From the NCBI RefSeq assembly GCF_056746865.1, contig NZ_CM163382.1: 64,000 nucleotides of DNA; one strand, 5' to 3'. Below the pieces are notes generated by a model. The model was not told where the DNA came from. It did no database searches and saw nothing but the letters and a program-made list of their open reading frames with translations. Of the stretch, positions 25,570 through 64,000 are shown piece by piece. The first letter of the stretch is position 1. The number at the start of each line of letters is the position of its first letter. Made by a program: the position numbers and the translations under genes.

Positions 25570-25790
25570 CTTAGGAGTGGCGGCATATAGCCAAAATAAC
25601 GTGAGCGGGTCCATGCCCGACAGAATCGTTACTCTCTCCCATCCGGACTCTAACCGTCGGCCCCGGAATTACACCGGATCTGCTGTCCTTTGAGTTCGCA
25701 CCCAAAGCGCTCGCGGGCTTTCAACTGAGTTGATTTACCGCCGGTGGGGAATTTCGCCCCGCCCTGAGAATAAGCGGATTCACTATAACG
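25570..25790 (-). ncRNA. sroG: FMN riboswitch (RFN element, sroG) in ribB 5' leader
   Basis: Minus-strand sequence contains conserved aptamer blocks CAGATCCGGTGTAATTCCGGGGCCGACGGTTAGAGTCCGGATGGGAGAGAGTAACG upstream of ribB. Confidence 0.8.
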
Positions 25791-29017: not shown

Positions 29018-29204
29018 ACCCTCTTCTATGAATAATCCCTGGCCCAAAAAGCCGGGGATTTTTTATATCTGCGTTCCGCTAAAAGGTGCAAATGATCAGG
29101 CTGTTGCAGCATTTTGCGTGACCGCTCGGGGAAGGGAAAACTGCCTCTGGGAAAGCGTTGCGCGGGGTCTGGCGCTCATCAACAATCGGGGAGTCAGCAG
29201 GGGG

Positions 29205-29350
29205 CTGAAACGGGAAAGCCCCTCCCGAAGAAGGGGCCTTATAGAAGGAAAGGGTTATGATGAAGCTCGTCATCATACTGATTGTGTTGTTACTAGTAAG
29301 TTTCCAGGCTTATTAACAACCAATTCAGAGGGGGGAGAAATCCTCCCTTA
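29205..29350 (-). ncRNA. sibD: Sib antisense RNA (antitoxin to Ibs), copy 1; boundaries approximate
   Basis: Antisense to ibs ORF; GC hairpin GCCCCT-CCCGAAGA-AGGGGC at 29217-29240 fits a minus-strand terminator; boundaries inferred. Confidence 0.5.
29257..29316 (+). CDS. ibsD: Ibs-family type I toxin (19 aa hydrophobic peptide MMKLVIILIVLLLVSFQAY)
   Basis: ATG ATG AAG CTC GTC ATC ATA CTG... TAA; matches Ibs toxin family; located between yqiK and hldE as ibsD/ibsE are in E. coli. Confidence 0.7.
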   Translation: MMKLVIILIVLLLVSFQAY

Positions 29351-29582
29351 CCCTTGTTCCTTTACTTTAGGTTGAAAAAAAATCAGCGTCAAGAAGGTTT
29401 CTCTATCCCACATCCCTGGCCCAAAAAGCCGGGGATTTTTTATATCTGCGTTCCGCTAAAAGGTGCAAATGATCAGGCTGTTGCAGCATTTTGCGTGACG
29501 GCTCGGGGAAGGCAAAACTGCATCAGGGAAAGCATTGCGCGGGGTCTGGCGCTCATCAACAATCGGGGAGTCAGCAAGGGGC

Positions 29583-29727
29583 TGAAACGGGAAAGCCCCT
29601 CCCGAAGAAGGGGCCTTGTATAAGGAAAGGGTTATGATGAAGCTGGTCATCATACTGATTGTGTTGTTACTCGTAAGTTTCGCAGCTTATTAACAGCCAA
29701 TCAGAGGGGGGAGAAATCCTCCCTCAC
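29583..29727 (-). ncRNA. sibE: Sib antisense RNA, copy 2; boundaries approximate
   Basis: Antisense to second ibs ORF; same hairpin structure as copy 1. Confidence 0.5.
29634..29693 (+). CDS. ibsE: Ibs-family type I toxin (MMKLVIILIVLLLVSFAAY)
   Basis: Second copy of 19-codon hydrophobic ORF; differs from copy 1 by Q17A. Confidence 0.7.
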   Translation: MMKLVIILIVLLLVSFAAY

Positions 29728-29812
29728 CCTTGTTCCTTTACTTTAGGTTGAAAAAAAAACAGCGTCAATAGGCCTGCCAGGTTCGAAGCGAGATCTGTGA
29801 ACCGCTTTCCGG

Positions 29813-49878: not shown

Positions 49879-50003
49879 ATTTACTCCTTTCTAACATCAC
49901 CAGGAAAAGTATAACGGATTGAAAATACATTGTTTATAAAAACAGCAGGCGCGCGGTAATGGCTGGATTGCGACACGGAGTTACTTTATAATCCGCTACC
50001 ATG

Positions 50004-50078
50004 GCCCCTTAGCTCAGTGGTTAGAGCAGGCGACTCATAATCGCTTGGTCGTTGGTTCAAACCCAACAGGGGCCACCA
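50004..50078 (+). tRNA. ileX: tRNA-Ile (anticodon CAU; lysidine-modified Ile2 type)
   Basis: GGCCCCTTAGCTCAGTGGTTAGAGCAGGCGACTCATAATCGCTTGGTCGTTGGTTCAAACCCAACAGGGGCCACCA; cloverleaf with CAT anticodon in loop CTCATAA; encoded CCA. Confidence 0.9.
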
Positions 50079-50088
50079 TACACAACAA

Positions 50089-50121
50089 AGGGTTAGCTAA
50101 TAAACCAGCTAACCCTTTTTC
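50089..50121 (+). terminator. tRNA-Ile intrinsic terminator
   Basis: AGGGTTAGCT-AATAAACC-AGCTAACCCT followed by TTTTTCTTTTT. Confidence 0.65.
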
Positions 50122-50176
50122 TTTTTCCTTTGAATTGGGTCAGGTAATGGGTCAGGTAAGCTTTTTTCCATCTGAC

Positions 50177-51022
50177 TCAGATGGCTGATAATTGTCCCGG
50201 ATAACGCTTTGCAATGATGTCATTTAGCCGATCAACCAGTTCTGGTTTTCTGAATGTGATATGCGCGGAGCCCTTCTTAAAGTATCTGATGCTGAACATC
50301 TCATCTTCATAGCTCTCTTTACCCTGAACAGACTGAATGTGCTCATCCAGACGAATAGTGATGTTTTCCCGATTGTCGGGGATTGGTTTACCGCTGAACA
50401 GGTGCAACATTCTTTCCAGATCGGCGAGTCGGTCAGCCTGTTGTCCGGTGATAAGATGAAATCCCCACCGGTCCCATCTCACCAGATTGTTGACGATAAT
50501 TTTACTGCCAAATTTACAGGGGCAATTGGTTTTGTAATTCCAGTTCAGCCCTCTGAAGACGTTGATCACCCCTCGCTCAAACACCTCATCCTTATTCTGG
50601 TGCAGTTGTTCAAATGTGCTCAGGATGTTCGCTTCGCTGATTTCCGGAAAATTATCGTACTCCAGTGACCGGTACCATGTCTCACGGGCCTGTGCATCCA
50701 TTAAGGAAAGCATCCCGGAACGTTGCATCAAGTCACGCCAGATTTCACGATCGAGATTGTGTGTGATGGCTTTCATTGCCGTTTCAGGTTTCTCCATGAG
50801 CCAGCAGCCACAGCGAAAATCCTGTTTCATCGCCCAGTCCAGTGCGGTTTTACCGCCAATACTTTCTGTCATTGCTGAGATTTCAGCCAGTTGCCGGATA
50901 AGTGTGTTGATTTGCAGCAGTGTACTTTTTCGTACAGCCAGAATGTGGCGGATACTGGTTGAGCAGATAACGTCCGTATGCCCGTTGACTACTTCCGGAC
51001 GGGAGGCTGTGATATCAGACAT
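50177..51022 (-). CDS. Uncharacterised island protein (281 aa; possibly DUF4942 family)
   Basis: Long clean ORF at tRNA-proximal end of island; family assignment from memory only. Confidence 0.55.
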   Translation of the reverse strand: MSDITASRPEVVNGHTDVICSTSIRHILAVRKSTLLQINTLIRQLAEISAMTESIGGKTALDWAMKQDFRCGCWLMEKPETAMKAITHNLDREIWRDLMQRSGMLSLMDAQARETWYRSLEYDNFPEISEANILSTFEQLHQNKDEVFERGVINVFRGLNWNYKTNCPCKFGSKIIVNNLVRWDRWGFHLITGQQADRLADLERMLHLFSGKPIPDNRENITIRLDEHIQSVQGKESYEDEMFSIRYFKKGSAHITFRKPELVDRLNDIIAKRYPGQLSAI

Positions 51023-51118
51023 AATCGATATTCCTTTTTGCAGATAAATGAAAACGCCAGCCCTGTTCAGGCTGGCGTCAGTGGAATGAAGTCTGGTGAG
51101 TGAGATGATGAGTGAAAC

Positions 51119-51316
51119 TCACCGGTTCGGGGGCTGAAGCTGCAGTTGGCGCAGGGTACGGATATCCTCCCTGGCCTGTTCAATACAGGACAACAGGGCT
51201 GTCGAATCCGTTTTATCCTCATCGTTGTCAAAGATAATTCCGGATTCACAGTCGATATTGTCCTGCAGCCACGCAATCAGAATATCCAGCGCTGTTTCCG
51301 TGGTTAATGATTTCAT
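51119..51316 (-). CDS. Small uncharacterised island protein (65 aa from MKSLTTET; possibly DUF957)
   Basis: ORF 51119..51361 trimmed to internal Met to avoid overlap with upstream ORF; acidic small protein. Confidence 0.4.
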   Translation of the reverse strand: MKSLTTETALDILIAWLQDNIDCESGIIFDNDEDKTDSTALLSCIEQAREDIRTLRQLQLQPPNR

Positions 51317-51327
51317 GTTGTTTCTGG

Positions 51328-51816
51328 TTACCAGTCGAAAGTGGGTAAATCCGGCAGACACCCGGCGCTGGCATCCAGATGAATAAGACTGACGCCATAA
51401 CGCCGGATGAGAGTGACAACCAGACGGCGGAAGGTTTTTGACAGGCCCAGACGTTTAAGGTGTAGCACCGGATACGACAAAGCATCGGTACGTAACAGAT
51501 ACCCTCTGCCTGTAAAATGAATCCATTCTGATTCGCCGGTGTCATTCGTCTGATGCGACAGCGAGTACAGCCAGGTGTTGTCCGTTTCCGTGATATGTGC
51601 GGTACTGCAGCGTATGCCGGTAAGGGCAGCAAATGGTGGCGTGCAGTCTGCTGAGGTCCGGTCAGATTCATCAACAACACGAAGGGAGTAGCCGTTATCG
51701 CAGATCATGTTAATCAGTTCAGCGAGATTAACACCATCAATGTCAACGACAATTCGCCCCATATTCAGTGCCTGTACGTTAACGCTGTCGGCTTCCAGTG
51801 TCAGGGTCAGTTGCAT
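51328..51816 (-). CDS. YeeW-like uncharacterised protein downstream of cbtA
   Basis: 162 aa ORF immediately after cbtA stop, position equivalent to yeeW in CP4-44. Confidence 0.45.
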
Positions 51817-52190
51817 CGTTTCGACTCCTGATGCTTACCCAGGGTAATGTTATTTACCGTTCTGTAATTGTCGCGGGTCATCAGGCCGGTTGCCCGGCGA
51901 GCCCGGAGAATATCAATACTGTTTATTAACTGAGAGCGGGTACAGGCGCTGAATCCCGGCTGGTCGGTACGTACCAGTGCGTATTTTTCAACGAGAAAGT
52001 TCACCGCATCGCACAGTGAAATGCCTGCCTCAATATGCTGCTCAATCACACGTTCATCAGCGAACGGTGTGTCATTCAGCGTAAGGCCGTAATGCTGGTC
52101 CAGCAGTCGGGTGAGCAGTGTCTGCCAGATTTCAACCGGAGACGGGCGTGAACTGGCCGCCTGCCCGGGTAATACAGGTAATGTTTTCAT
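51807..52190 (-). CDS. cbtA: CbtA/YeeV-family type IV toxin (cytoskeleton-binding toxin)
   Basis: ORF trimmed to [23 protein letters not shown]...; family conserved sequence. Confidence 0.8.
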
Positions 52191-52279
52191 ACTGAAGATT
52201 TTCCTGATATGCAGAGATGAAAAATGGAAAAGTGGCGTGGTGAAAGCACCAGGCCGGAGCAGAAGGTTATTCTGGATAG

Positions 52280-52648
52280 TTACCTTTTCGTTTCGGGCGT
52301 CGGATAAACAGCCATATAAACGTAGCCACAACTGCCGAGGGTGTCGGCTTCGCAGGTCAGCCCTTTTGCATACAGCGTGACGGTATGCTGATGGCGGGAA
52401 TTCAGTTCACCGCTGGTGAGCATGAGTTCCAGTTGTTTCATCAGCAGCGGAAAGGCCTGGTCCAGGTGGTACGAATCCGCGTCGCTGAACCGGCCTCTGA
52501 TACCGGCGCGGTCGGCAAGGTAATGCAACCGGTTGCCCTCCTGCACCAGACGGGCGCCAAAACAAGGTGTCACGGTACAGGGCAGCCCCCACCAGGGGCG
52601 GTCGTGATTGTCATCGGGATGCGTTGTCCCGGGCAGTGTGTCTGACAC
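52280..52648 (-). CDS. cbeA: CbeA/YeeU-family antitoxin
   Basis: 122 aa; [48 protein letters not shown]. Confidence 0.8.
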
Positions 52649-52727
52649 AATAAAATCCTCACAGAAAATTGGTTAAGAATGGTCCGGTGGTGGCGATAAT
52701 TCTGCTCTTCTGAATGCCCTTCCGGAC

Positions 52728-52949
52728 TCAGTTCAGGGTGACGCTCATCAGCCGGACATACGGACCAAAACTGTCCTTACGGCGTTCTGCAAACACAGCC
52801 AGCACACCGGGAATATCCTGCACTTCACGGCCGGTATATGTATCCGTGCTACCGTGCCAGCGGTATTTGCCGGTACAGAACGGAAAAAGACGGGATGCCG
52901 GATGTTGTTGGTGAATACGCATGGCTTCACCACGGGTGATGATTTTCAT
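52728..52949 (-). CDS. YeeT/DUF987 protein
   Basis: 73 aa; MKIITRGEAMRIHQQHPASRLFPF; conserved partner upstream of cbeA. Confidence 0.7.
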   Translation of the reverse strand: MKIITRGEAMRIHQQHPASRLFPFCTGKYRWHGSTDTYTGREVQDIPGVLAVFAERRKDSFGPYVRLMSVTLN

Positions 52950-53017
52950 GGTGTGATACCTCTTAAGACAGAAGATAAAAGTGAAAACAGGTGTGATGTG
53001 GTGGTGACGGTGACGGG

Positions 53018-53494
53018 TTAAAGCAGACCGTGTTCCGCAAAGGAGAAAACCTGGCTGCCACCGACTATCAGATGGTCCGGTACCCGGATATCCACCAGGC
53101 CCAGTGCCTGTACCAGACGTTCCGTGATAAGGCGGTCTGCCTTGCTGGGTGTGACTTCACCGGACGGGTGATTGTGTGCCAGCACCACGGCAGCGGCATT
53201 GTGGTACAGGGCACGTTTAATCACTTCCCGGGGATGGACTTCCGTGCGGTTGATGGTGCCGGTGAAGAGGGTTTCACCGGCAATCAGCTGATTCTGGTTG
53301 TTCAGATACAGCACCCGGAACTCTTCCCGCTCCAGTCCCGCCATGTTCAGAATCAGCCACTCCCGTGCCGCATGCGTGGAGGTGAAGGCCACGCCGGGTT
53401 CATGAAGATGGCGGTCCAGGGTTTTCAGGGCCCGCTGAATGAGGCTGCGCTCGCCGGGCGTCATCTCTCCGGGCAGAAAAGAAAGCTGTTGCAT
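53018..53494 (-). CDS. RadC-like JAB-domain protein (YeeS/YfjY family)
   Basis: 158 aa; JAMM motif HNHPSGEVTPSKAD. Confidence 0.85.
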   Translation of the reverse strand: MQQLSFLPGEMTPGERSLIQRALKTLDRHLHEPGVAFTSTHAAREWLILNMAGLEREEFRVLYLNNQNQLIAGETLFTGTINRTEVHPREVIKRALYHNAAAVVLAHNHPSGEVTPSKADRLITERLVQALGLVDIRVPDHLIVGGSQVFSFAEHGLL

Positions 53495-53508
53495 TGTTCC
53501 GGCCCCTT

Positions 53509-53994
53509 TCAGTCAATGATGCGCATAATGGCGTTGCATTCCGGATGCTGCAGGGCGTAATCCCGCAGCCGGTAATAATGGACCGTCATGGCATAACACT
53601 CCGTACGACAGGCATGATGGCTGTACGTCATCAGACAGGCAGCAATGCCGGCGGCTTCCGGGCTCATTTCAGCGCGGTTACCGTTCATGGCACTGAACAG
53701 TACCCATGTTTCGTCATCATCGTCATCCGGTTCGGGTGCCATAAATGCCCCGCCGTTGTTCAGGGTGTACAGATTCCAGATACCACCACAGTAGTCTTCG
53801 CACAGACGATCCATCCAGCCGAAGACACGGGGCTCCAGGGTCACCCACTGTGGAATGAGGCCAAAATGCTGCGGCCAGAAGCTGATGCGCTGTTCATCAG
53901 GGACGAGGGTGGCAACCAGTTGAGGCGGGTTATTCTCTGATACAGCGGTTACGGAAACAGAAGGTGTGGTGGAATTATGCAAAACGGTTGTCAT
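53509..53994 (-). CDS. Antirestriction protein (ArdB/KlcA/YfjX family)
   Basis: 161 aa; family-typical C-terminal region; position upstream of radC-like gene as in CP4-57 yfjX. Confidence 0.7.
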   Translation of the reverse strand: MTTVLHNSTTPSVSVTAVSENNPPQLVATLVPDEQRISFWPQHFGLIPQWVTLEPRVFGWMDRLCEDYCGGIWNLYTLNNGGAFMAPEPDDDDDETWVLFSAMNGNRAEMSPEAAGIAACLMTYSHHACRTECYAMTVHYYRLRDYALQHPECNAIMRIID

Positions 53995-54084
53995 GAGATT
54001 ATTCCTTATAAAAAGTAAATGAATGGAAGAAGTCGCGGGGCAGGGACGGACATGAGTCAGAACTGCGCTTTCAGGGAAAAGGCA

Positions 54085-54903
54085 TCAGCGCATACTCTTC
54101 AGCAGTGTTTCTGCCATCACCCACAATGCGCGATTGAGCTTAATGTCGGTGTCGATGCTGTGAATGGCACGGGTATGGATACGTTTTCCTCTGGCACTGC
54201 GACCGGAAATCCCGCCTTTCAGCATATTCTCCTGGATGGTCTGATAAGCACTCCACAGGTCCTTACCGTAATCCTCCCGGCGTCGCGGTGTCAGAATGTC
54301 AGCAGCGGTGACGGGCTGATGTTCGTCACCATAACGGTAAGTCAGTGCCGCCTGTGCCAGCGCCTGGCGTGCCGGTGGCGGCAGGACCAGCGACTGCATG
54401 GCATCACGCTTCTCCTCAATCCGGTCAAAAACCCCCACCACCTCGTAAGCCCCTTCGATAACTTTCTCCACTACGTCTCCCCGGTGTGGAACACGCACTT
54501 CCCCCAGAGACTGACCACAGACGCATCCGTTCTGGCAGACGAACCTGAAGTAACCCGGCAGCATCTGGTAGCTGGAGGTACCGTCATGGGAGTTCAGCAG
54601 GATGATTTCAGGGACATGTTGTCCGTTTATCTCCCCGTCACGGCGCAGACGCAGCATGTGTTTGGTGTATCCCCGGCGGCCCGGGTCGCGCACGCGGGTC
54701 TGGCAGGCGAAGAATGGCTGGAAGCCTTCCCGCTGCAGGCTTTCCAGCACGGTGATGGTGGGGATCCAGGTATAGTTCTCGCTTCTGGATGTGTGTTTCT
54801 CTTCCCCGAATACGCTGGGGACGACCTGCATCAGTTCTTCACGGGTTAAGGGGCGGTCACGGCGTATCTGGTTCGCATAACCAAAACGACTGGCTAATCG
54901 CAT
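54085..54903 (-). CDS. DUF932 protein (YfjQ/YafZ family)
   Basis: 272 aa; MRLASRFGYANQIRRDRPLTREELMQVVPSVFGEEKH. Confidence 0.75.
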   Translation of the reverse strand: MRLASRFGYANQIRRDRPLTREELMQVVPSVFGEEKHTSRSENYTWIPTITVLESLQREGFQPFFACQTRVRDPGRRGYTKHMLRLRRDGEINGQHVPEIILLNSHDGTSSYQMLPGYFRFVCQNGCVCGQSLGEVRVPHRGDVVEKVIEGAYEVVGVFDRIEEKRDAMQSLVLPPPARQALAQAALTYRYGDEHQPVTAADILTPRRREDYGKDLWSAYQTIQENMLKGGISGRSARGKRIHTRAIHSIDTDIKLNRALWVMAETLLKSMR

Positions 54904-55174
54904 GATTTATTCCTTATGAATGAGTTAGCGGTGTAAATGAAAAAGCCGCGTCTCCCGGAGAAGACGCGGCCTGATGGACGAAATGAATGACGTTTATTGT
55001 CTGAGAAGCCCTTCACTGGCGAGCTGCGTATTTTTATGGAAGGAGATCACCCAATAACCCCATCGGGATCGGGCAATAACCGGCCAAATTGTGAACGATT
55101 CAGATGCCATTTGGCAGCAAAAGAGCCTTCGGCAATAAACGTGATGTACAACCCGGCATATCTGTTGCTCCCTG

Positions 55175-55207
55175 AAAGTAAAAAGCCCCGGTCATTATGA
55201 CCGGGGC
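55175..55207 (-). terminator. Ag43 intrinsic terminator
   Basis: GCCCCGGTCAT-TATGACCGGGGC hairpin followed on minus strand by TTTTTACTTTC. Confidence 0.6.
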
Positions 55208-55229
55208 CTGAAGGGGAGTGACCTGATTA

Positions 55230-58076
55230 TCAGAAAGTCACATTCAGCGTGGCCTGACCGTTATAGCCTTCAGCGCTGTTGCCGCTGACACTGTGGGCAT
55301 AACCGGCCTGAACGCCCAGAGTGATATTTTCCCGGACACGGGCTTCCAGTCCGGCCTGCAGGTCCAGTGACGTGCCATTCTGTGACGGTGAGAACGTCAT
55401 GTTACTGCCGGCTTCAGCTGTACCCATGCTCATGTCACCCCGGGAGCTGAAAGTGCGGATAACAGAAGGCTGTACCCACCAGTTCACCGGCAGTTCACTC
55501 ACACGGTGTTTTGTACTGTCGCGCAGAGTGTCACGGGATGAGGTGCCTTCGCCAAAGGTCATATCGTTGTGGCTGCCCAGACGGAAGCCGGCACGCACAT
55601 GTTGTGTACTGCCATGCCCGAACTTCACATAACCGGCGTTATCCTGGCCGTCATCCAGGGAGAGCCCCTGCCAGGTGTACTGCAGTTGTGGCTCCAGCAT
55701 CAGGTTGTCAGTGATACTGAAGGGCAGACCGGTTTCCAGTGAGCCCAGCCAGCCCCAGCCCCGGGCGCGGAAGTCGTTATTGTCCGATGACGCTTTCATG
55801 CTGTGGCGGGTTCCCTGTGCCACAATGTCAGCCCACAGGCCGGAGGACGTGTGTGTCAGATTCAGGTATCCGCCCAGGCTGCCGGCATCATCCCGGACTG
55901 TGCCGGCGCGGGAACCGTCATCATCCTTAACATCAACGGAAGAATGACCTGCAGCACCATACACCCCTGTCGTCAGAGACATACCTGCAACCTCTGTTCT
56001 CAGCAGGTCACCCTCCAGACGGACGAAGCCATAGCTGCCGCTGCTTTCCGGCGTGGCTCCACGGGCAATACCGCCGTTGTTATCGTGACCGAGATGACCG
56101 CCCTGAATGCTGAGACGGACGCTGTTATTTTCACCGTTTACACCGGTCTGATGGCTGCGGGAGCCTGCCAGAATCCGGTCATAGTCCATTGCCTGTGTCA
56201 GCATGGAGGCATACAGGGGGACTTCAGCACGATAAGCATTTTCACTGCGCAGGTACCAGTCTTCATCGCTGTCACGGTTCAGGGTGTAGTTAAAGGCACC
56301 GGCCTGAAGCGGGCGACTCAGGGCAAACGCACCTTCTTCTGTGGTGGCACCATTCTGTGCATCCACAACCCGGATACCCTGTCCGGAGGTTGCCACCCCG
56401 AGGTTACTGTTTCCGACATTTGTGAACGCAAGCCAGGTTTTGCCGGTTGCCTGACCACCATTAATCACCAGCTGGTCAGAGGCATTGCTGCCATCAAGGC
56501 GAACACGCATATTGATGGTGCCACCCTGACCGGTGAGGTTACTGGTTGTCAGTTTATGGAACGTTACCGGGGCGTTGCCTTTTGCAACAGCACGGCTCAG
56601 TATGGCATCCGGTGTTGTCTGATTGTCAAAGTAAATCTCCCCTGCGTTAACAATATCGCCGGTACTGACCACATCACCATTCAGTACCATGCTGGCGCCT
56701 TTACTGAGCTGTGTTCTGCCACTCAGACTTCCCCCGGCAGCCAGCATCAGTGTTCCACGATGTCCGACAGTGGTGTTGCCAGCCTGTCCCCCGGCATTAA
56801 CCGTAAAGCTGCCGCCATTTTCCAGCAGCAGGCCGCTGGCCTGACCGGATATGCCATCAATACTGAACTTACCGCTGGCATTGGTCCCCTCAACAGTGGC
56901 ACCACTGTCTGCAATCAGGGCACCACCGGATGTCATGGTGACACCTGTCGCCTTACCACCGGCAGACACTGCCAGGGTTCCGCCGTCATCCACCCGTGTT
57001 TTCTGCGCTGAATGGCCCTCCAGTACATCCAGGCGACCGCCGGACTCCAGAACAACACCGTCAGCCTTACCGTTTTCCACCGTGAAATTCCCCAGACGGT
57101 TGCTGCCGGTGACGGTTGCCGCCGTACTGGTGACCAGTGCGCCGCCCTGCTTCAGGGTGACATTCGTGGCTGTACCACCGGCGTTCACCTGCAGTTTGCC
57201 TTTCTGGTTAACGGTGGAGAAATCCGCCAGACCACCTTCCTTGATAATCTGCCAGCCGTCACTGTTTACAACAGTGCCAGACGCCGTACCGCCGTTGTGC
57301 ACATACTGGTACCCCCCATTCAGCGTGGTATCCAGTGCGTGACCATGTACAGTCTGGTCGCCGCCGGCATAAACCACAGTGGTATTTGCCGTTCCTTCAG
57401 CAGCCACAATCTGACGACCATTTTTATTGATGGTGGTGCGTACGGCATCTCCGTAGACGGTCTGCCCGGTATCACCATTTTCTGCATCCGGTCCCCCTTC
57501 CGCGCCGGTATTCACAACCGTGTCGGTTGCCATTGCGCCGGATTTGACGGCCTGCCAGCCCTTCTCATTAATGACGGTACCCGTTGCAATCCCGCCTTCA
57601 TGTATCCACTGCTCACCGCCGTTCAGAGTGGTGTTCACTGCCTGCCCCTGAAGGCTCTGTCCGCCTCCGGCACTGATAACCGTGTCTGAAACGCTTCCTC
57701 CGGCATTCACTCTCTGAAGACCACCACCGGTGACAGTAGTGTTGTTGGCGGTACCGCCATTTTGTATCCATTGGCCGCCGGTATTCGCCTCGTTATCCGG
57801 CCCATACTCCAGCCCGGTACTGATGGTCATTCCGTTGGCCGTACCGAAGACAATCTGGTTGTCATGATTTGTCAGTGTTCCGCCGCTCACGGTTTCTCCC
57901 GCCTGTACGACCGTGTCAGCAGCCAGTACCGGGACTGACGTGACAGCAGCAAGAGACAGCGCAACCGCCACACCGGTGCGTTTTCCCCGTGAGCGCGCCA
58001 GTTCGGAAGCCACCACCAGGGTGCCCGTAATGTGATTCCATACCAGCCTGTAGCTGGTGTTCAGATGTCGTTTCAT
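55230..58076 (-). CDS. flu: Antigen 43 self-associating autotransporter adhesin (short ~950 aa variant)
   Basis: ORF trimmed to MKRHLNTSYRLVWNHITGTLVVASELARSRGKR extended signal peptide; beta-helical passenger repeats; C-terminal beta-barrel ending ...YNGQATLNVTF. Confidence 0.9.
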   Translation of the reverse strand: MKRHLNTSYRLVWNHITGTLVVASELARSRGKRTGVAVALSLAAVTSVPVLAADTVVQAGETVSGGTLTNHDNQIVFGTANGMTISTGLEYGPDNEANTGGQWIQNGGTANNTTVTGGGLQRVNAGGSVSDTVISAGGGQSLQGQAVNTTLNGGEQWIHEGGIATGTVINEKGWQAVKSGAMATDTVVNTGAEGGPDAENGDTGQTVYGDAVRTTINKNGRQIVAAEGTANTTVVYAGGDQTVHGHALDTTLNGGYQYVHNGGTASGTVVNSDGWQIIKEGGLADFSTVNQKGKLQVNAGGTATNVTLKQGGALVTSTAATVTGSNRLGNFTVENGKADGVVLESGGRLDVLEGHSAQKTRVDDGGTLAVSAGGKATGVTMTSGGALIADSGATVEGTNASGKFSIDGISGQASGLLLENGGSFTVNAGGQAGNTTVGHRGTLMLAAGGSLSGRTQLSKGASMVLNGDVVSTGDIVNAGEIYFDNQTTPDAILSRAVAKGNAPVTFHKLTTSNLTGQGGTINMRVRLDGSNASDQLVINGGQATGKTWLAFTNVGNSNLGVATSGQGIRVVDAQNGATTEEGAFALSRPLQAGAFNYTLNRDSDEDWYLRSENAYRAEVPLYASMLTQAMDYDRILAGSRSHQTGVNGENNSVRLSIQGGHLGHDNNGGIARGATPESSGSYGFVRLEGDLLRTEVAGMSLTTGVYGAAGHSSVDVKDDDGSRAGTVRDDAGSLGGYLNLTHTSSGLWADIVAQGTRHSMKASSDNNDFRARGWGWLGSLETGLPFSITDNLMLEPQLQYTWQGLSLDDGQDNAGYVKFGHGSTQHVRAGFRLGSHNDMTFGEGTSSRDTLRDSTKHRVSELPVNWWVQPSVIRTFSSRGDMSMGTAEAGSNMTFSPSQNGTSLDLQAGLEARVRENITLGVQAGYAHSVSGNSAEGYNGQATLNVTF

Positions 58077-58293
58077 CAGCTTTTCCTTACAGAGGGTGAA
58101 TAAAAAAGCCGGTACCCACAAATGTGGATACCGGCAGGTACAAAACAGCATGGTCAGATAAAGTGGTTTTTCCCGGACATAAATGCTTCCCCTCTCTCAT
58201 CCGCCAGAGAAGTATCAGTCCGTTGTGTGCAATTCCGTTCTGCATGATGAAGAGATTCAACTGCCTTTTCGCAGGCCATTAACCACTATAAAC

Positions 58294-58329
58294 GATCGAT
58301 AGTAACGATCGATACCTGTTTTATTGATC
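58294..58329. promoter_or_regulatory. Three clustered Dam GATC sites (Ag43 phase-variation switch / OxyR operator)
   Basis: GATC at 58294, 58307 and 58326 within 36 bp (AACGATCGATAGTAACGATCGATACCTGTTTTATTGATCG) ~220 bp upstream of Ag43 start. Confidence 0.7.
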
Positions 58330-58448
58330 GTTTTATTCTATTGATTGCAAGGCGGTCACGCAAGAGAAACAGGAGGATCATGAGGTGTTTGTGTCATGTT
58401 TTCAGTTGGTTAACGCAATGTAATCAGGCATTTCCCCTGGCAGACTGT

Positions 58449-59321
58449 TCAGAAGAAAATCCAGTTCCATACAGCGCGGGCAACAGAGACCACCGAGTCA
58501 CGGACGGCACGCAGAACCGTGCGTGCAACAGAGGCAATACAGACGCTCTCCGCCGTGTCAAATATCCGGTCCACCGCACCGGTAAACTGTTCACGGGCCT
58601 GAGACCGGACAGATTCCGTGCGCAGCTCGTCCTGCAGGCGGGTCATCAGGGGACTGGCGGCATGGTCGGGAAGCGCTGTCATGAGCGCACTGACCAGCGT
58701 ATCCAGTTCCCAGCCGGTGCAGGCCGATACGGCCACAACCGGATGTACGGGTCGGAACAGCCGGAATACCGCATCTGTTTTCTCACGAATGTTCTGTGCC
58801 TGTGCGGGAGAAGGCTGAATGCCGGCCATATCCCATTCATGGCAGGGCTCCGTTTTGTCGGCCTGCGTCACCACAAACAGTACCCGCTGATGTCCCCGGT
58901 GCAGGATGTGTCGCCAGAAATACTCATCCACAGACAGGGCACGGTCATCGGCTTTAATCAGCCACAGTACCAGGTCAAGTTCAGGCAGAATGTTACGGTA
59001 CAGGGCTTCATACTCTGCATCCCTGTCCCGGCTCTCGCCCACCCCGGGCAGGTCAGTGATAATCATGCTGTGACCGTGGCCACTCAGACGGAAGCGCTGC
59101 ACTTCCCGGGTGCCGGCGTGAACATCACTGACCGGTGTGACTTCCCCCTGAAACAGCGCATTACAGAGTGAGGATTTACCGGCCCCGCTTTTACCCATAA
59201 TGCCAATCACGGGTTCGTGGCTGGTGAGTTTACGCAGATGTTCCAGGATGTGACGGGAAAGCGAATAAGGCAGGGAGGAGAGCGGTTTTTCAATTGCCTC
59301 AATGGCATCAGACGGATTCAT
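58449..59321 (-). CDS. YfjP/YeeP/YkfA-family GTPase
   Basis: P-loop GKSGAGKSS, G3 DLPG, G4 TQADK; start taken at MNPSDAIEAIEK (ORF extends to 59360). Confidence 0.75.
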   Translation of the reverse strand: MNPSDAIEAIEKPLSSLPYSLSRHILEHLRKLTSHEPVIGIMGKSGAGKSSLCNALFQGEVTPVSDVHAGTREVQRFRLSGHGHSMIITDLPGVGESRDRDAEYEALYRNILPELDLVLWLIKADDRALSVDEYFWRHILHRGHQRVLFVVTQADKTEPCHEWDMAGIQPSPAQAQNIREKTDAVFRLFRPVHPVVAVSACTGWELDTLVSALMTALPDHAASPLMTRLQDELRTESVRSQAREQFTGAVDRIFDTAESVCIASVARTVLRAVRDSVVSVARAVWNWIFF

Positions 59322-59584
59322 ATATGTATTCCCGGTGAAAAAAGACAAAACCCCGCGCACCGGAAAGGTGGCGGGGGATTCACGGAGATAATATCTGTCT
59401 GAAATTATTTAGAATGCACCTGGTGCACTGCAAAGGAAAGGCAGTATTCCGTTCCTCCTCCTTGTCGTGAATACCCCAGGTATCTCACAATGTACACCGA
59501 CTTACTCCGGGGCTGCCTGAACCACAAGATTGCTGTAGAATTGCCCCCAATGATTCAGGTCCAAACCAGGCAAATGGATTAAAA

Positions 59585-61141
59585 ATGACAAGTATTCAAC
59601 AACGAGCAGAACTGCACCGCCAGATATGGCAAATTGCCAATGATGTCAGAGGTTCTGTTGACGGATGGGATTTTAAGCAATACGTTCTGGGCGCACTTTT
59701 CTACCGTTTTATCAGCGAAAATTTTTCCAGTTATATTGAAGCCGGTGATGACAGTATCTGTTATGCGAAACTGGATGACAGCGTAATTACTGATGACATT
59801 AAAGACGATGCCATCAAAACTAAAGGCTACTTCATCTACCCCAGTCAGCTTTTCTGCAACGTAGCGGCGAAAGCAAATACTAATGACAGGCTGAATGCAG
59901 ATTTAAACAGCATCTTCGTTGCTATCGAAAGTTCTGCTTACGGTTATCCTTCAGAAGCTGACATCAAAGGTTTGTTTGCTGATTTCGATACCACCAGTAA
60001 CCGCCTGGGTAACACCGTTAAGGATAAAAATGCCCGCCTGGCTGCGGTTCTGAAAGGGGTTGAAGGGTTAAAACTTGGTGACTTCAACGAACATCAGATT
60101 GACCTGTTCGGTGATGCCTATGAGTTCCTGATTTCTAACTATGCGGCAAATGCCGGTAAGTCAGGCGGTGAGTTCTTTACACCGCAGCACGTCTCCAGGC
60201 TGATTGCACAACTGGCTATGCACGGGCAGACCAGCGTTAACAAAATCTACGACCCGGCAGCGGGTTCCGGCTCACTGTTGTTGCAGGCGAAAAAACAGTT
60301 TGATAACCACATCATCGAAGAAGGCTTTTTCGGTCAGGAAATCAACCATACGACCTATAACCTGGCGCGTATGAACATGTTTTTGCACAACATCAACTAC
60401 GACAAGTTTGATATCAAGCTGGGTAATACACTGACTGAGCCACACTTCAGAGATGAAAAACCGTTTGATGCCATCGTTTCTAACCCGCCGTATTCGGTGA
60501 AATGGATTGGCAGCGATGACCCGACGCTGATTAACGATGAACGTTTTGCCCCGGCTGGCGTTCTGGCCCCCAAATCAAAAGCTGACTTCGCCTTTGTACT
60601 ACATGCGCTGAACTATCTTTCTGCCAAAGGTCGCGCCGCGATTGTCTGCTTCCCGGGTATTTTTTACCGTGGCGGCGCGGAGCAGAAAATCCGTCAGTAT
60701 CTGGTCGATAATAACTATGTCGAAACCGTGATTTCACTGGCACCGAACCTGTTCTTTGGCACCACCATTGCCGTCAATATTCTGGTGCTGTCTAAACATA
60801 AAACGGATACCAAAGTTCAGTTTATTGACGCCAGCGAACTGTTCAAAAAAGAGACTAATAACAACATCCTGACCGATGCTCATATCGAACAGATTATGCA
60901 GGTATTTGCCGGCAAGGAAGATGTTGCTCATCTGGCGAAATCTGTCACGTTTGAGACTGTTGTCGCGAATGACTATAACCTGTCGGTGAGCAGCTATGTG
61001 GAAGCGAAAGATAACCGCGAAGTGGTGGACATTGCTCAGCTCAACGCCGAGCTGAAATCTACTGTCGCCAGGATTGACCAGCTTCGCAGGGATATTGATG
61101 CCATCGTCGCTGAAATTGAAGGCGAGGAGCAGGAGGCATGA
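59585..61141 (+). CDS. hsdM: Type I restriction-modification methyltransferase subunit HsdM (type IC, EcoR124-like)
   Basis: 518 aa; SAM-binding DPAAGSGS and catalytic NPPY motif; overlaps hsdS by 4 nt. Confidence 0.9.
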
Positions 61142-62343
61142 GTAGCGTGAACTTCTTGGAAAAGCTGTTGGATGGCGTTGAGGTCGAGTGGAAGACACTT
61201 GGGCAAACTTGCAAAATTGAAACAGGAAAGCTTAATGCGAATGCGGCTGTTGATGATGGAGAGTATATGTTCTTCACGACAGCCAAAGAGACAAGCAAAA
61301 TTGATAAATTCCGCTGGGATACAGAGGCATTGCTGATTGCAGGCAATGCGAATGTTGGTGAGGTGAAGCATTACATCGGCAAGTTTGAGGCTTATCAGCG
61401 CACCTATGTTCTGACAAATTTCGACGAAAATGTAAGTGTTAGATTTTTGTATTTTGTGCTTAGCCATAGCCTGAAGAAATATCTCGAGGAAAGAACAAAT
61501 AGCGCGGCAATGACATATATCGTGCTATCAACCTTAGAGAATTTCCCTATCCCCATCCCCTGCCCAGGCAACCCCCAAAAATCCCTTGCCATCCAGTCTG
61601 AAATCGTTCGGATTCTGGATAAATTTACTGCACTTACCGCTGAGCTTACCGCTGAGCTTAACATGCGTAAAAAACAGTACAACTACTATCGCGACCAGTT
61701 GTTGAGTTTTAAAGAGGGTGAGGTTGAGTGGAAGACTTTGGGGGAAATTGGAGATTTTACATATGGATATGCAGCCAAAGCCATGGATTCAGGAGATGCC
61801 CGTTTCGTGAGAATTACTGACATAAATAAAGACGGGAAGCTATCGAAAGAAAACCCAATGTACGTTGAATTAAATGAGGAAAATGAGAAATATACCTTAG
61901 ACAAAAATGATTTACTCATGGCAAGAACTGGGGCAACCTTTGGTAAAACAATGATTTTTGAAGAAGATTATCCAGCAGTATACGCTGGTTTTTTAATAAA
62001 GTTGAACCTAAATAAAACGATTATTAATGCCAAATATTACTGGCACTTTGCACAAAGTGATTTTTTTTGGGAACAGGCTAATAAATTAGTATCTGGTGGT
62101 GGGCAACCACAGTTTAATGCTAATGCACTGAAACAAGTCAGAGTACCTATTCCATACCCATCTCACCCTCAAAAATCTTTAGACGAACAGGGGCGTATTG
62201 TGGATATTCTGGATAAGTTTGATGCAATCGCAGCTTCCATCACCGAAGGTCTCCCGCGTGAAATCGAGTTACGTCAAAAACAATACGAATACTATCGTGA
62301 TTTACTGCTCAGTTTCCCAAAACCTGAAACTGTCAGTAAATAA
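61138..62343 (+). CDS. hsdS: Type I R-M specificity subunit HsdS (type IC)
   Basis: 401 aa; two TRDs separated by central conserved region with TAELTAEL repeat and conserved KKQYxYYRDxLLSF blocks after each TRD. Confidence 0.85.
61627..61659 (+). repeat. Tandem 12-bp repeat (ACCGCTGAGCTT x2, preceded by partial ACTGCACTT) encoding TAEL-TAEL in hsdS
   Basis: Direct reading of hsdS codons 164-174: [11 protein letters not shown]. Confidence 0.8.
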
Positions 62344-62464
62344 TTGACCATTGCTACCGACCGGGCCTCCTTAACATCCGGTCAGTATATAGACTATTTT
62401 TTACGCGCCGGAAGTCACTCTTAACGCCCTTCCGGCTCTTGCCAGGCGGCACAAAGGATGCGCT

Positions 62465-64000
62465 ATGACTCATCAAACACACACCATTGCTGAATCCAAT
62501 AACTTTATCGTCCTTGATAAGTACATCAAAGCTGAGCAAACAAGCGACAGCTACCAGAGCGAATCGGACCTGGAACGTGAACTGATTCAGGACCTGCGGA
62601 ATCAGGGTTATGAATTTATTTCCGTAAAATCACAGTCGGCAATGCTGTCTAATGTTCGGGAACAGCTTCAGAGCCTCAATGGTGTGATGTTTAATGACAG
62701 CGAGTGGCGGCGCTTCACGGAGCAGTATCTGGACAACCCCAGCGATGGTATTCTGGATAAAACCCGTAAAATCCATATCGACTATATCTGCGACTTTATT
62801 TTTGACGACGGGCGACTTGAGAACATCTATTTGATAGATAAAAAGAATCTCATGCGCAATAAGGTGCAGATTATCCAGCAGTTTGAACAGACGGGTTCTC
62901 ATGCTAACCGTTATGACGTCACGATCCTGGTTAATGGTTTACCGCTGGTGCAAATCGAACTAAAAAAACGCGGGGTGGCGATTCGTGAGGCTTTCAACCA
63001 GATACATCGTTACAGTAAAGAGAGTTTTAACAGCGAAAATTCCCTGTTTAAGTATCTGCAACTGTTTGTCATTTCTAACGGCACCGATACCCGTTATTTT
63101 GCCAACACGACAAAGCGCGATAAAAACAGTTTTGACTTCACCATGAATTGGGCGAAATCAGACAACACGCTGATTAAAGACCTCAAAGACTTTACCGCTA
63201 CCTTTTTCCAGAAACATACTCTGCTGAATGTTCTGGTGAACTACAGCGTTTTTGACAGTAGTCAGACGCTACTGGTGATGCGACCGTACCAGATTGCCGC
63301 CACCGAGCGCATTCTGTGGAAAATTAAGAGTTCCTTTACAGCGAAGAACTGGTCAAAACCGGAAAGCGGTGGGTATATCTGGCACACTACCGGTTCTGGT
63401 AAAACCCTCACCAGCTTTAAAGCCGCGCGTCTGGCAACAGAGCTGGACTTTATTGATAAAGTCTTCTTTGTGGTCGACAGGAAAGACCTCGATTACCAGA
63501 CCATGAAGGAATATCAGCGTTTTTCGCCAGACAGCGTCAACGGCTCGGAAAATACCGCAGGCCTTAAACGAAATCTGGATAAGGACGATAACAAAATTAT
63601 CGTCACTACTATTCAGAAACTCAATAACCTGATGAAAGCAGAAAGCGACCTGCCTGTATATAATCAGCAAGTGGTGTTTATATTTGATGAATGCCACCGC
63701 AGCCAGTTTGGAGAAGCGCAGAAAAACCTGAAGAAGAAATTCAAACGCTATTATCAGTTTGGTTTTACCGGCACCCCTATTTTCCCGGAAAACGCCTTAG
63801 GCTCAGAAACAACCGCCAGCGTATTTGGCCGTGAATTGCATTCGTATGTGATTACCGATGCGATTCGTGACGAAAAAGTGCTCAAATTCAAGGTGGACTA
63901 CAACGATGTGCGGCCACAGTTTAAGTCTTTAGAGACAGAAACTGACGAGAAAAAACTGAGTGCGGCTGAAAATCAGCAGGCGTTTCTTCACCCCATGCGT
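62465..64000 (+). CDS. hsdR: Type I restriction endonuclease subunit HsdR (type IC), 5' portion only, truncated by window end
   Basis: In-frame translation [20 protein letters not shown]...; helicase motif I TGSGKT and motif II DECH; open to window end (not in ORF track because no stop). Confidence 0.9.

Follow-up and report, generated by a model that had tools for sequence, protein, structure and literature searches.

The hsdS gene at 61138-62343 of the window, meaning the whole analysed stretch of 64,000 nt from contig NZ_CM163382.1 (NCBI RefSeq assembly GCF_056746865.1), very probably carries the TAEL spacer-length module of type IC specificity subunits. The module stands in its two-copy state and would change rarely and in frame, probably through misalignment. 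The gene encodes a type IC HsdS, two TAEL units lie in its central conserved region, and natural copy-number variants of this and of related alleles occur in public assemblies. Since such variants exist but are scarce, at about 1% of contigs, the repeat looks like a real spacer-length module in which a change of copy number is a rare mutation and not a rapid programmed switch. The operon and the architecture of HsdS are laid out as follows.

59585-61141, + strand: hsdM, 518 aa, type IC methyltransferase subunit (ORF list)
61138-62343, + strand: hsdS, 401 aa, type IC specificity subunit (ORF list)
61192-61548, + strand: TRD1, aa ~19-137, variable N-terminal region with approximate boundaries, aligning poorly to EcoR124 HsdS between identical flanks
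61549-61752, + strand: central conserved region, aa 138-205, helix 1 of the antiparallel coiled coil by which the TRDs are kept apart
61753-62142, + strand: TRD2, aa ~206-335, variable C-terminal region with approximate boundaries, aligning poorly to EcoR124
62143-62340, + strand: distal conserved region, aa 336-401, second coiled-coil helix, near-identical to the EcoR124 C-terminus
62465-64000, + strand: hsdR, first 511 codons, continuing past the window end (ORF list)

The TGA stop of hsdM overlaps the ATG of hsdS in the ATGA at 61138-61141, and this overlap together with the gene order hsdM-hsdS-hsdR is that of a type IC operon. The gap between hsdS and hsdR is 121 bp with no gene inside. 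Membership of a restriction family rests on how similar the subunits are and on whether they can be exchanged. HsdM reaches 1132 bits against EcoR124 HsdM (PDB 7bst_D), with ~97% identity over 515 aa, and matches NCBIfam TIGR00497 hsdM with 647 bits. HsdR residues 1-511 give 1122 bits against EcoR124 HsdR (PDB 2w00_A) and match NCBIfam TIGR00348. HsdS aligns end to end with EcoR124 HsdS (PDB 7bst_A; E = 7e-71); its conserved blocks are those of EcoR124, including a matching N-terminal motif, and both TRDs are divergent, which is the architecture of the family. On the similarity of HsdS, HsdM and HsdR to EcoR124, the operon is assigned to the type IC EcoR124 family with TRDs that appear new, and the placing of the gene in this family and of its repeat in the central conserved region, both suggested in an earlier note on this DNA, is upheld.

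Annotation elsewhere agrees with this reading of the genes. Alleles that share these TRDs carry a Pfam PF01420 assignment, and at identical RefSeq loci hsdS is annotated as 'restriction endonuclease subunit S' (WP_059239974.1). E. coli PEC148, in which hsdS is identical, has annotated M and S genes and a full-length HsdR of 1038 aa. A second hsdS, an inverted-repeat cassette and a recombinase are all absent beside the operon, according to the window ORF list and the RefSeq annotation of a locus with identical hsdS. Searching by protein accession found no published recognition sequence.

The repeat and its flank are read in the hsdS frame as follows.

61627-61635, + strand: flank T-A-L, ACT GCA CTT, from the hsdS codon reading; precedes 1, 2 or 3 TAEL units
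61633-61660, + strand: perfect tandem tract, unit CTTACCGCTGAG, 2.3 copies, period 12, 100% matches, no indels, single array (Tandem Repeats Finder, TRF)
61636-61647 and 61648-61659, + strand: TAEL units, ACC GCT GAG CTT each, from codon-by-codon reading in the hsdS frame

The tract at 61633-61660 is in frame within hsdS, and the two TAEL units occupy HsdS aa 167-174 as a tetra-amino-acid repeat of the type IC kind. Directly 3' of the second unit are the codons AAC ATG CGT, and the residues continue as N-M-R-K-K-Q. TRF and the codon reading return exactly the 61627-61659 at which the earlier note had placed a TAEL-coding 12-bp tandem repeat. The note had further counted two full copies plus a degenerate third, TAL. 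The two full copies stand, and the third does not: the TAL DNA has only the CTT codon in common with the unit, with ACT GCA in place of ACC GCT and the GAG codon absent. All alleles read have the identical flank, whether 1, 2 or 3 units follow it, which rules out a decayed copy. As FTAL stands ahead of the repeats in EcoR124I, and also in each E. coli allele that was inspected, TAL is a fixed flank and not a repeat copy.

The TAEL tract is the one place in the 64-kb window where 16 or more lag-matches (lags 4-30) follow each other without a break. A chance origin of the repeat is ruled out by first-order Markov simulations of the window, in which none of 200 simulated windows held a comparable tract. 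TRF arrays scoring at least 50 number two in the window, the TAEL tract and an unrelated 377-bp tandem duplication at 29035-29768 (1.9 copies, 95% matches). This duplication corresponds to a pair of neighbouring SIB antitoxin RNA genes (Rfam RF00113, 150 and 142 bits). Two further candidates within hsdS were set aside: a 9-bp TRF match in the distal helix at 62196-62215, whose score of 33 at 90% identity is below the threshold of 50, and a 92-aa ORF on the opposite strand at 61404-61682, a mechanical ORF inside hsdS without support.

The central region of HsdS, including the repeat, is that of EcoR124I apart from G144D and Q147E. Conversion of EcoR124II to EcoR124I has been achieved by deletion of one TAEL unit (PMC10644984), and the unit-deletion primers accgctgagcttaacatgcg and ctgcacttaccgctgagctt of that study match the window DNA. 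Judged by this identity and by the primer matches, the hsdS gene is in the EcoR124I-like two-copy state.

What the copy number does is well described for relatives. EcoR124I with two copies recognizes GAA N6 RTCG and EcoR124II with three copies recognizes GAA N7 RTCG, and unequal crossing-over is named as the mechanism of the change in TAEL repeat number in the EcoR124/EcoR124-3 interconversion (PMC3874165). The earlier note had stated both the spacer rule and the mechanism as that source gives them for the EcoR124 family. Hybrids of EcoR124I and EcoDXXI with altered repeat number changed their spacer exactly as predicted, and the central helix of the conserved region has a role in spacing the TRDs (PMC3874165). 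Moreover, the tetra-amino-acid repeats TAEL, LEAT, SEAL and TSEL in the central region are characteristic of type IC (PMC10030836).

By homology with EcoR124I, the enzyme encoded here would have an N6 spacer. Each 12-bp unit would add four residues, or about one helical turn, to the central coiled-coil helix that separates the TRDs, and because each unit would lengthen the helix in this way, the copy number would set the distance between the two methylated adenines. Misalignment is likewise the probable mechanism in this gene by homology: in a 28-bp tract of perfect periodicity, pairing out of register, either by replication slippage or by unequal sister-strand exchange, could now and then lead to the in-frame loss or gain of a unit. 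The product would be an enzyme with unchanged half-sites and an altered spacer, and the copy-number variants may be active. Survival of the cell after such a change of specificity is plausible because type IC enzymes undergo restriction alleviation via control of assembly and their methylase has no preference for hemimethylated DNA (PMC12707154). The number of residues between the ILDKF and KQY motifs is 14 in the central helix versus 18 in the distal helix, so a third TAEL would equalise the two helices. This count agrees with the remark that three copies appear optimal (PMC3874165).

Natural variants of this TRD pair were sought by building one-, three- and four-copy HsdS for three backgrounds, the window's own and two sisters, followed by exact-sequence look-up among ~15 billion proteins. 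The one-copy protein P0003 (397 aa), derived from a sister allele, occurs on 24 contigs in independent NCBI and Logan assemblies. It is an exact 12-bp deletion with hsdM and hsdR intact, and it lies in the setting of a P1-like phage-plasmid (Lpa, DUF968, Phd/Doc). Its two-copy parent P0001 is present on at least 2496 contigs, so one-copy forms amount to about 1%. A second one-copy variant, P0041, occurs on 1 contig and on another background; the two-copy counterparts of P0003 and P0041 are P0001 and P0005. Alleles that differ in repeat number alone, as in the EcoR124I/II switch, therefore exist for this TRD pair, and the change that the earlier note held possible in principle has occurred in nature. 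An assembly artefact was judged an unlikely origin of the one-copy variants, as the exact in-frame 12-bp deletion is found in independent NCBI and Logan assemblies and its junction sequence is absent from two-copy genomes.

The direction of change is one-sided. The window's own protein background, P0002 (779 contigs), gave no one-, three- or four-copy variant by exact look-up, and the three-copy form was absent by exact look-up on 10 backgrounds, namely those of the window, the two sisters and seven more. Contraction to one copy is the sole change seen for this TRD pair, and the N7 three-copy form was never seen. Moreover, this TRD pair is carried by 50 records among 5426 complete E. coli genomes, and each of them is two-copy, every match being of query length. 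The idea of a built-in switch, in the sense of a frequent or programmed change, is not supported by these counts.

The history of the contraction can be read in part from the flanking SNPs. The one-copy locus L008 differs from the two-copy locus L022 by 1 SNP in 7.5 kb and the one-copy L006 from the two-copy L021 by 5 SNPs, while L021 and L022 differ by 55. This pattern would fit at least two independent contractions. There is no SNP between -531 and +1017 of the repeat, and recurrent deletion therefore looks the same here as short-tract recombination, by which one contraction may have spread. The SNP-free block of ~1.5 kb around the repeat and HsdS, with its mosaic hsdM and hsdR flanks, suggests that the hsdMSR cassette moves by recombination. 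The same cassette with the same TRD pair is seen in two contexts (L006-L013, L021 and L022 versus L014-L020 and L023): a chromosomal island with the order Ag43-GTPase-hsdMSR-IS1-pgaD, and a P1-like phage-plasmid beside Lpa, DUF968 and Phd/Doc. A plasmid copy of the same hsdS in H90 (NZ_CP141766.1, 48535-49720) has 1186 nt matched versus 1187 nt; this indel of one base might shift the reading frame or might be an error of sequencing.

Copy-number variation extends across the E. coli type IC family. Type IC hsdS is present in 1279 of the 5426 E. coli genomes, at up to 6 places per genome, on chromosomes and plasmids. A spread sample from the 1369 matching E. coli records gave 55 informative central regions, six of them verified by sequence, with one copy in 2, two copies in 30 and three copies in 23. 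Exact look-ups of copy-number variants on four other backgrounds found proteins that are identical save for copy number on every one of them.

L005 (natural three copies): two copies, P0017, 11 contigs; one copy, P0016, 1 contig; four copies not found
L029 (natural three copies): two copies, P0018, at least 1000 contigs; one copy, P0019, 28 contigs; four copies not found
L025 (natural one copy): two copies, P0033, 112 contigs; three copies not found
L027 (natural three copies): two copies, P0034, 44 contigs; four copies not found

The L027 background also has a one-copy form, cluster member P0036, which was assigned from length and repeat count. Four-copy variants were found on none of the five backgrounds tested. 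The repeat unit is ACCGCTGAGCTT in the window hsdS and ACAGCAGAGCTT, three times over, in L026 (NZ_OZ369348.1). Since the units are identical within a gene and different between genes, they indicate an ongoing turnover of the repeat, apparently by local duplication and deletion with concerted evolution of the repeat.

Complete genomes contributed two one-copy alleles to the sample, and the operons of both are decayed. In L024 (NZ_CP075484.1) hsdR is truncated and the single unit reads TAKL, and in L025 (NZ_CP095856.1) hsdM has an internal stop. This may be chance, or it may hint that one-copy forms frequently lack function. It is doubtful that the type IC enzymes of E. coli have, in one-copy TAEL, a third state that is functional and recurs, with the same half-sites and a spacer 1 bp shorter, arising repeatedly on chromosomal islands and P1-like phage-plasmids. 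If this were true, a ladder of one, two and three copies would diversify restriction specificity more often than the textbook pair EcoR124I/II suggests, and the ladder for this TRD pair would be biased to contraction.

The explanation that competes best with a rarely mutating module is that the repeat is a fixed structural spacer, with two copies as the selected state and with the rare one-copy forms as mutants, either neutral or loss-of-function, that are in the process of disappearing. The uniform two-copy state of the complete-genome records, the absence of a three-copy form on 10 backgrounds and the ~1% share of one-copy contigs all point in this direction, as do the pseudogenised hsdR or hsdM genes beside the L024 and L025 alleles; in addition, reduction to one copy would leave the central helix 8 residues short of its partner. 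Against this, hsdM (518 aa) and hsdR (1038 aa) are both full-length at the P0003 loci, as seen in at least 8 independent samples and on several hsdM/hsdR haplotypes. NgoAV methylation persists in strains that have fewer LEAT repeats, the spacer being 1 bp shorter (PMC6789123), and sizeable two-state populations exist elsewhere, namely the 112 two-copy contigs on the L025 background and the 28 one-copy contigs beside at least 1000 two-copy contigs of L029. A fixed spacer is a rather improbable account.

A rarely mutating module also has to be set against a different route of change, in which copy number is altered by homologous recombination or gene conversion between type IC hsdS alleles that meet in one cell (on the chromosome, a plasmid or a P1-like phage-plasmid), the central region being the crossover site. 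The partners for such exchange are available, as type IC hsdS occupies as many as six chromosomal and plasmid places in a genome. Shuffling of TRDs is evident as well: in L005, TRD1 is exchanged for unrelated sequence and TRD2 is kept, and this TRD2 is common to L005 and L028, both of which have a different TRD1 and three TAEL copies. The 1.5-kb SNP-free block with mosaic flanks means that a one-copy tract could spread by recombination. On the other hand, the variants equal their parents everywhere else in HsdS, the homogeneity of units within a gene and their difference between genes fit local duplication and deletion, and the EcoR124/EcoR124-3 interconversion itself is ascribed to unequal crossing-over at the repeat (PMC3874165). 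As the source of the copy-number changes, exchange between alleles is unlikely. High-frequency variation of the phasevarion type, with one-, two- and three-copy cells mixed in each culture, is highly improbable even though EcoR124 and EcoR124/3 alternated historically (references in PMC3874165) and length changes beside TAEL tracts have been suggested to be able to alter specificity (PMC7383803), because the tract has just 2.3 units of 12 bp, far below classical phase-variable repeats, two copies prevail overwhelmingly in assemblies with this TRD pair, and the operon is without a neighbouring second hsdS, inverted-repeat cassette or recombinase.

EcoR124I/EcoR124II: The closest known systems are EcoR124I and EcoR124II (EcoR124/3, plasmid R124), with the same gene order, the ~97% identical HsdM and an HsdR that is near-identical over the 511 window residues. 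HsdS agrees with EcoR124I in its N-terminal, central and distal conserved regions and in having two copies, and the 12-bp unit ACCGCTGAGCTT and both of its flanks match EcoR124 at the DNA level. In contrast, both TRDs here are unrelated to those of EcoR124, and the half-sites are therefore not expected to be GAA and RTCG. Whereas EcoR124 resides on an IncF plasmid, the present operon lies in a chromosomal island adjoining Ag43, downstream of a tRNA gene. Unlike in the EcoR124I/II pair, a three-copy partner was not found for this TRD pair on the 10 backgrounds.

EcoDXXI and EcoPrrI: EcoPrrI carries prrC between hsdS and hsdR, whereas no gene occupies the corresponding 121 bp here. EcoDXXI and EcoPrrI are type IC systems with the same TAEL module in the central helix, and they differ from the two-copy allele of the window in having three TAEL copies and N7-spaced sites (PMC3874165).

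NgoAV: The type IC system NgoAV of Neisseria gonorrhoeae has 0-3 LEAT repeats among strains, and the motif spacer determined by PacBio grows by 1 bp per repeat, as in GAC N6 TGC versus GAC N7 TGC (PMC6789123). Its tetra-amino-acid repeat (LEAT/EATL) is likewise in the central region, and the variation between one, two and three copies in E. coli is the equivalent. However, the repeat sequence is different, and the poly-G frameshift tract that truncates HsdS in NgoAV has no counterpart as a homopolymer switch here.

Phase-variable systems: The ON/OFF hsdS and hsdM genes with SSR tracts and the hsdS shufflons (SpnD39III, Mycoplasma pulmonis) have a similar outcome, that is, an altered methylation or restriction specificity within a lineage. 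Phase-variable type I systems rely on long frame-shifting repeat tracts or on recombinase-driven inversion among hsdS cassettes, and they switch at high frequency. Neither a long hypermutable tract nor inverting hsdS cassettes with a recombinase were found at this locus; unlike those systems, it has one hsdS, an in-frame tract of two units and no recombinase, and the data are consistent with rare events.

The hsd operon is located in a genomic island at 50100-64000, which begins just past a tRNA gene at 50003-50078. This tRNA is Met-CAT according to ARAGORN and tRNA-Ile in the RefSeq annotation of PEC148. The island has CP4-like cargo, comprising a CbtA/YeeU toxin-antitoxin pair, a JAB/RadC-like protein and DUF932, and an 'antirestriction protein' gene (~53509-53994, - strand) shares it with the type I restriction system. 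The Ag43/Cah autotransporter adhesin gene (55230-58151, - strand) is ~1.3 kb from the hsd operon, and an Rfam IS102 RNA match (74 bits, 58095-58331, - strand) falls in the Ag43 upstream leader. Ag43 is a classical Dam/OxyR phase-variable gene, so the copy beside the operon would be a genuine epigenetic switch. An FMN riboswitch is found elsewhere in the window (25627-25775, - strand; Rfam RF00050, 121 bits).

The biology of the TAEL spacer reportedly dates from Price et al. in 1989. Knowledge of the mechanism goes back to the late 1980s (reviewed in PMC3874165), and the allele is common and annotated; as the biology is already textbook, no new principle is added. The value for annotation is that, for this widespread E. 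coli allele, the repeat count would predict the separation of the half-sites as in EcoR124I. In comparisons of hsdS alleles and in the interpretation of methylomes, the repeat should be read out instead of being collapsed. What is mildly new is the ladder of one, two and three copies of otherwise identical HsdS that was mined from public data and coexists in natural E. coli, with variants on chromosomes and P1-like phage-plasmids. Because these natural variants coexist, the rate of copy-number change and its effect on fitness can be measured.
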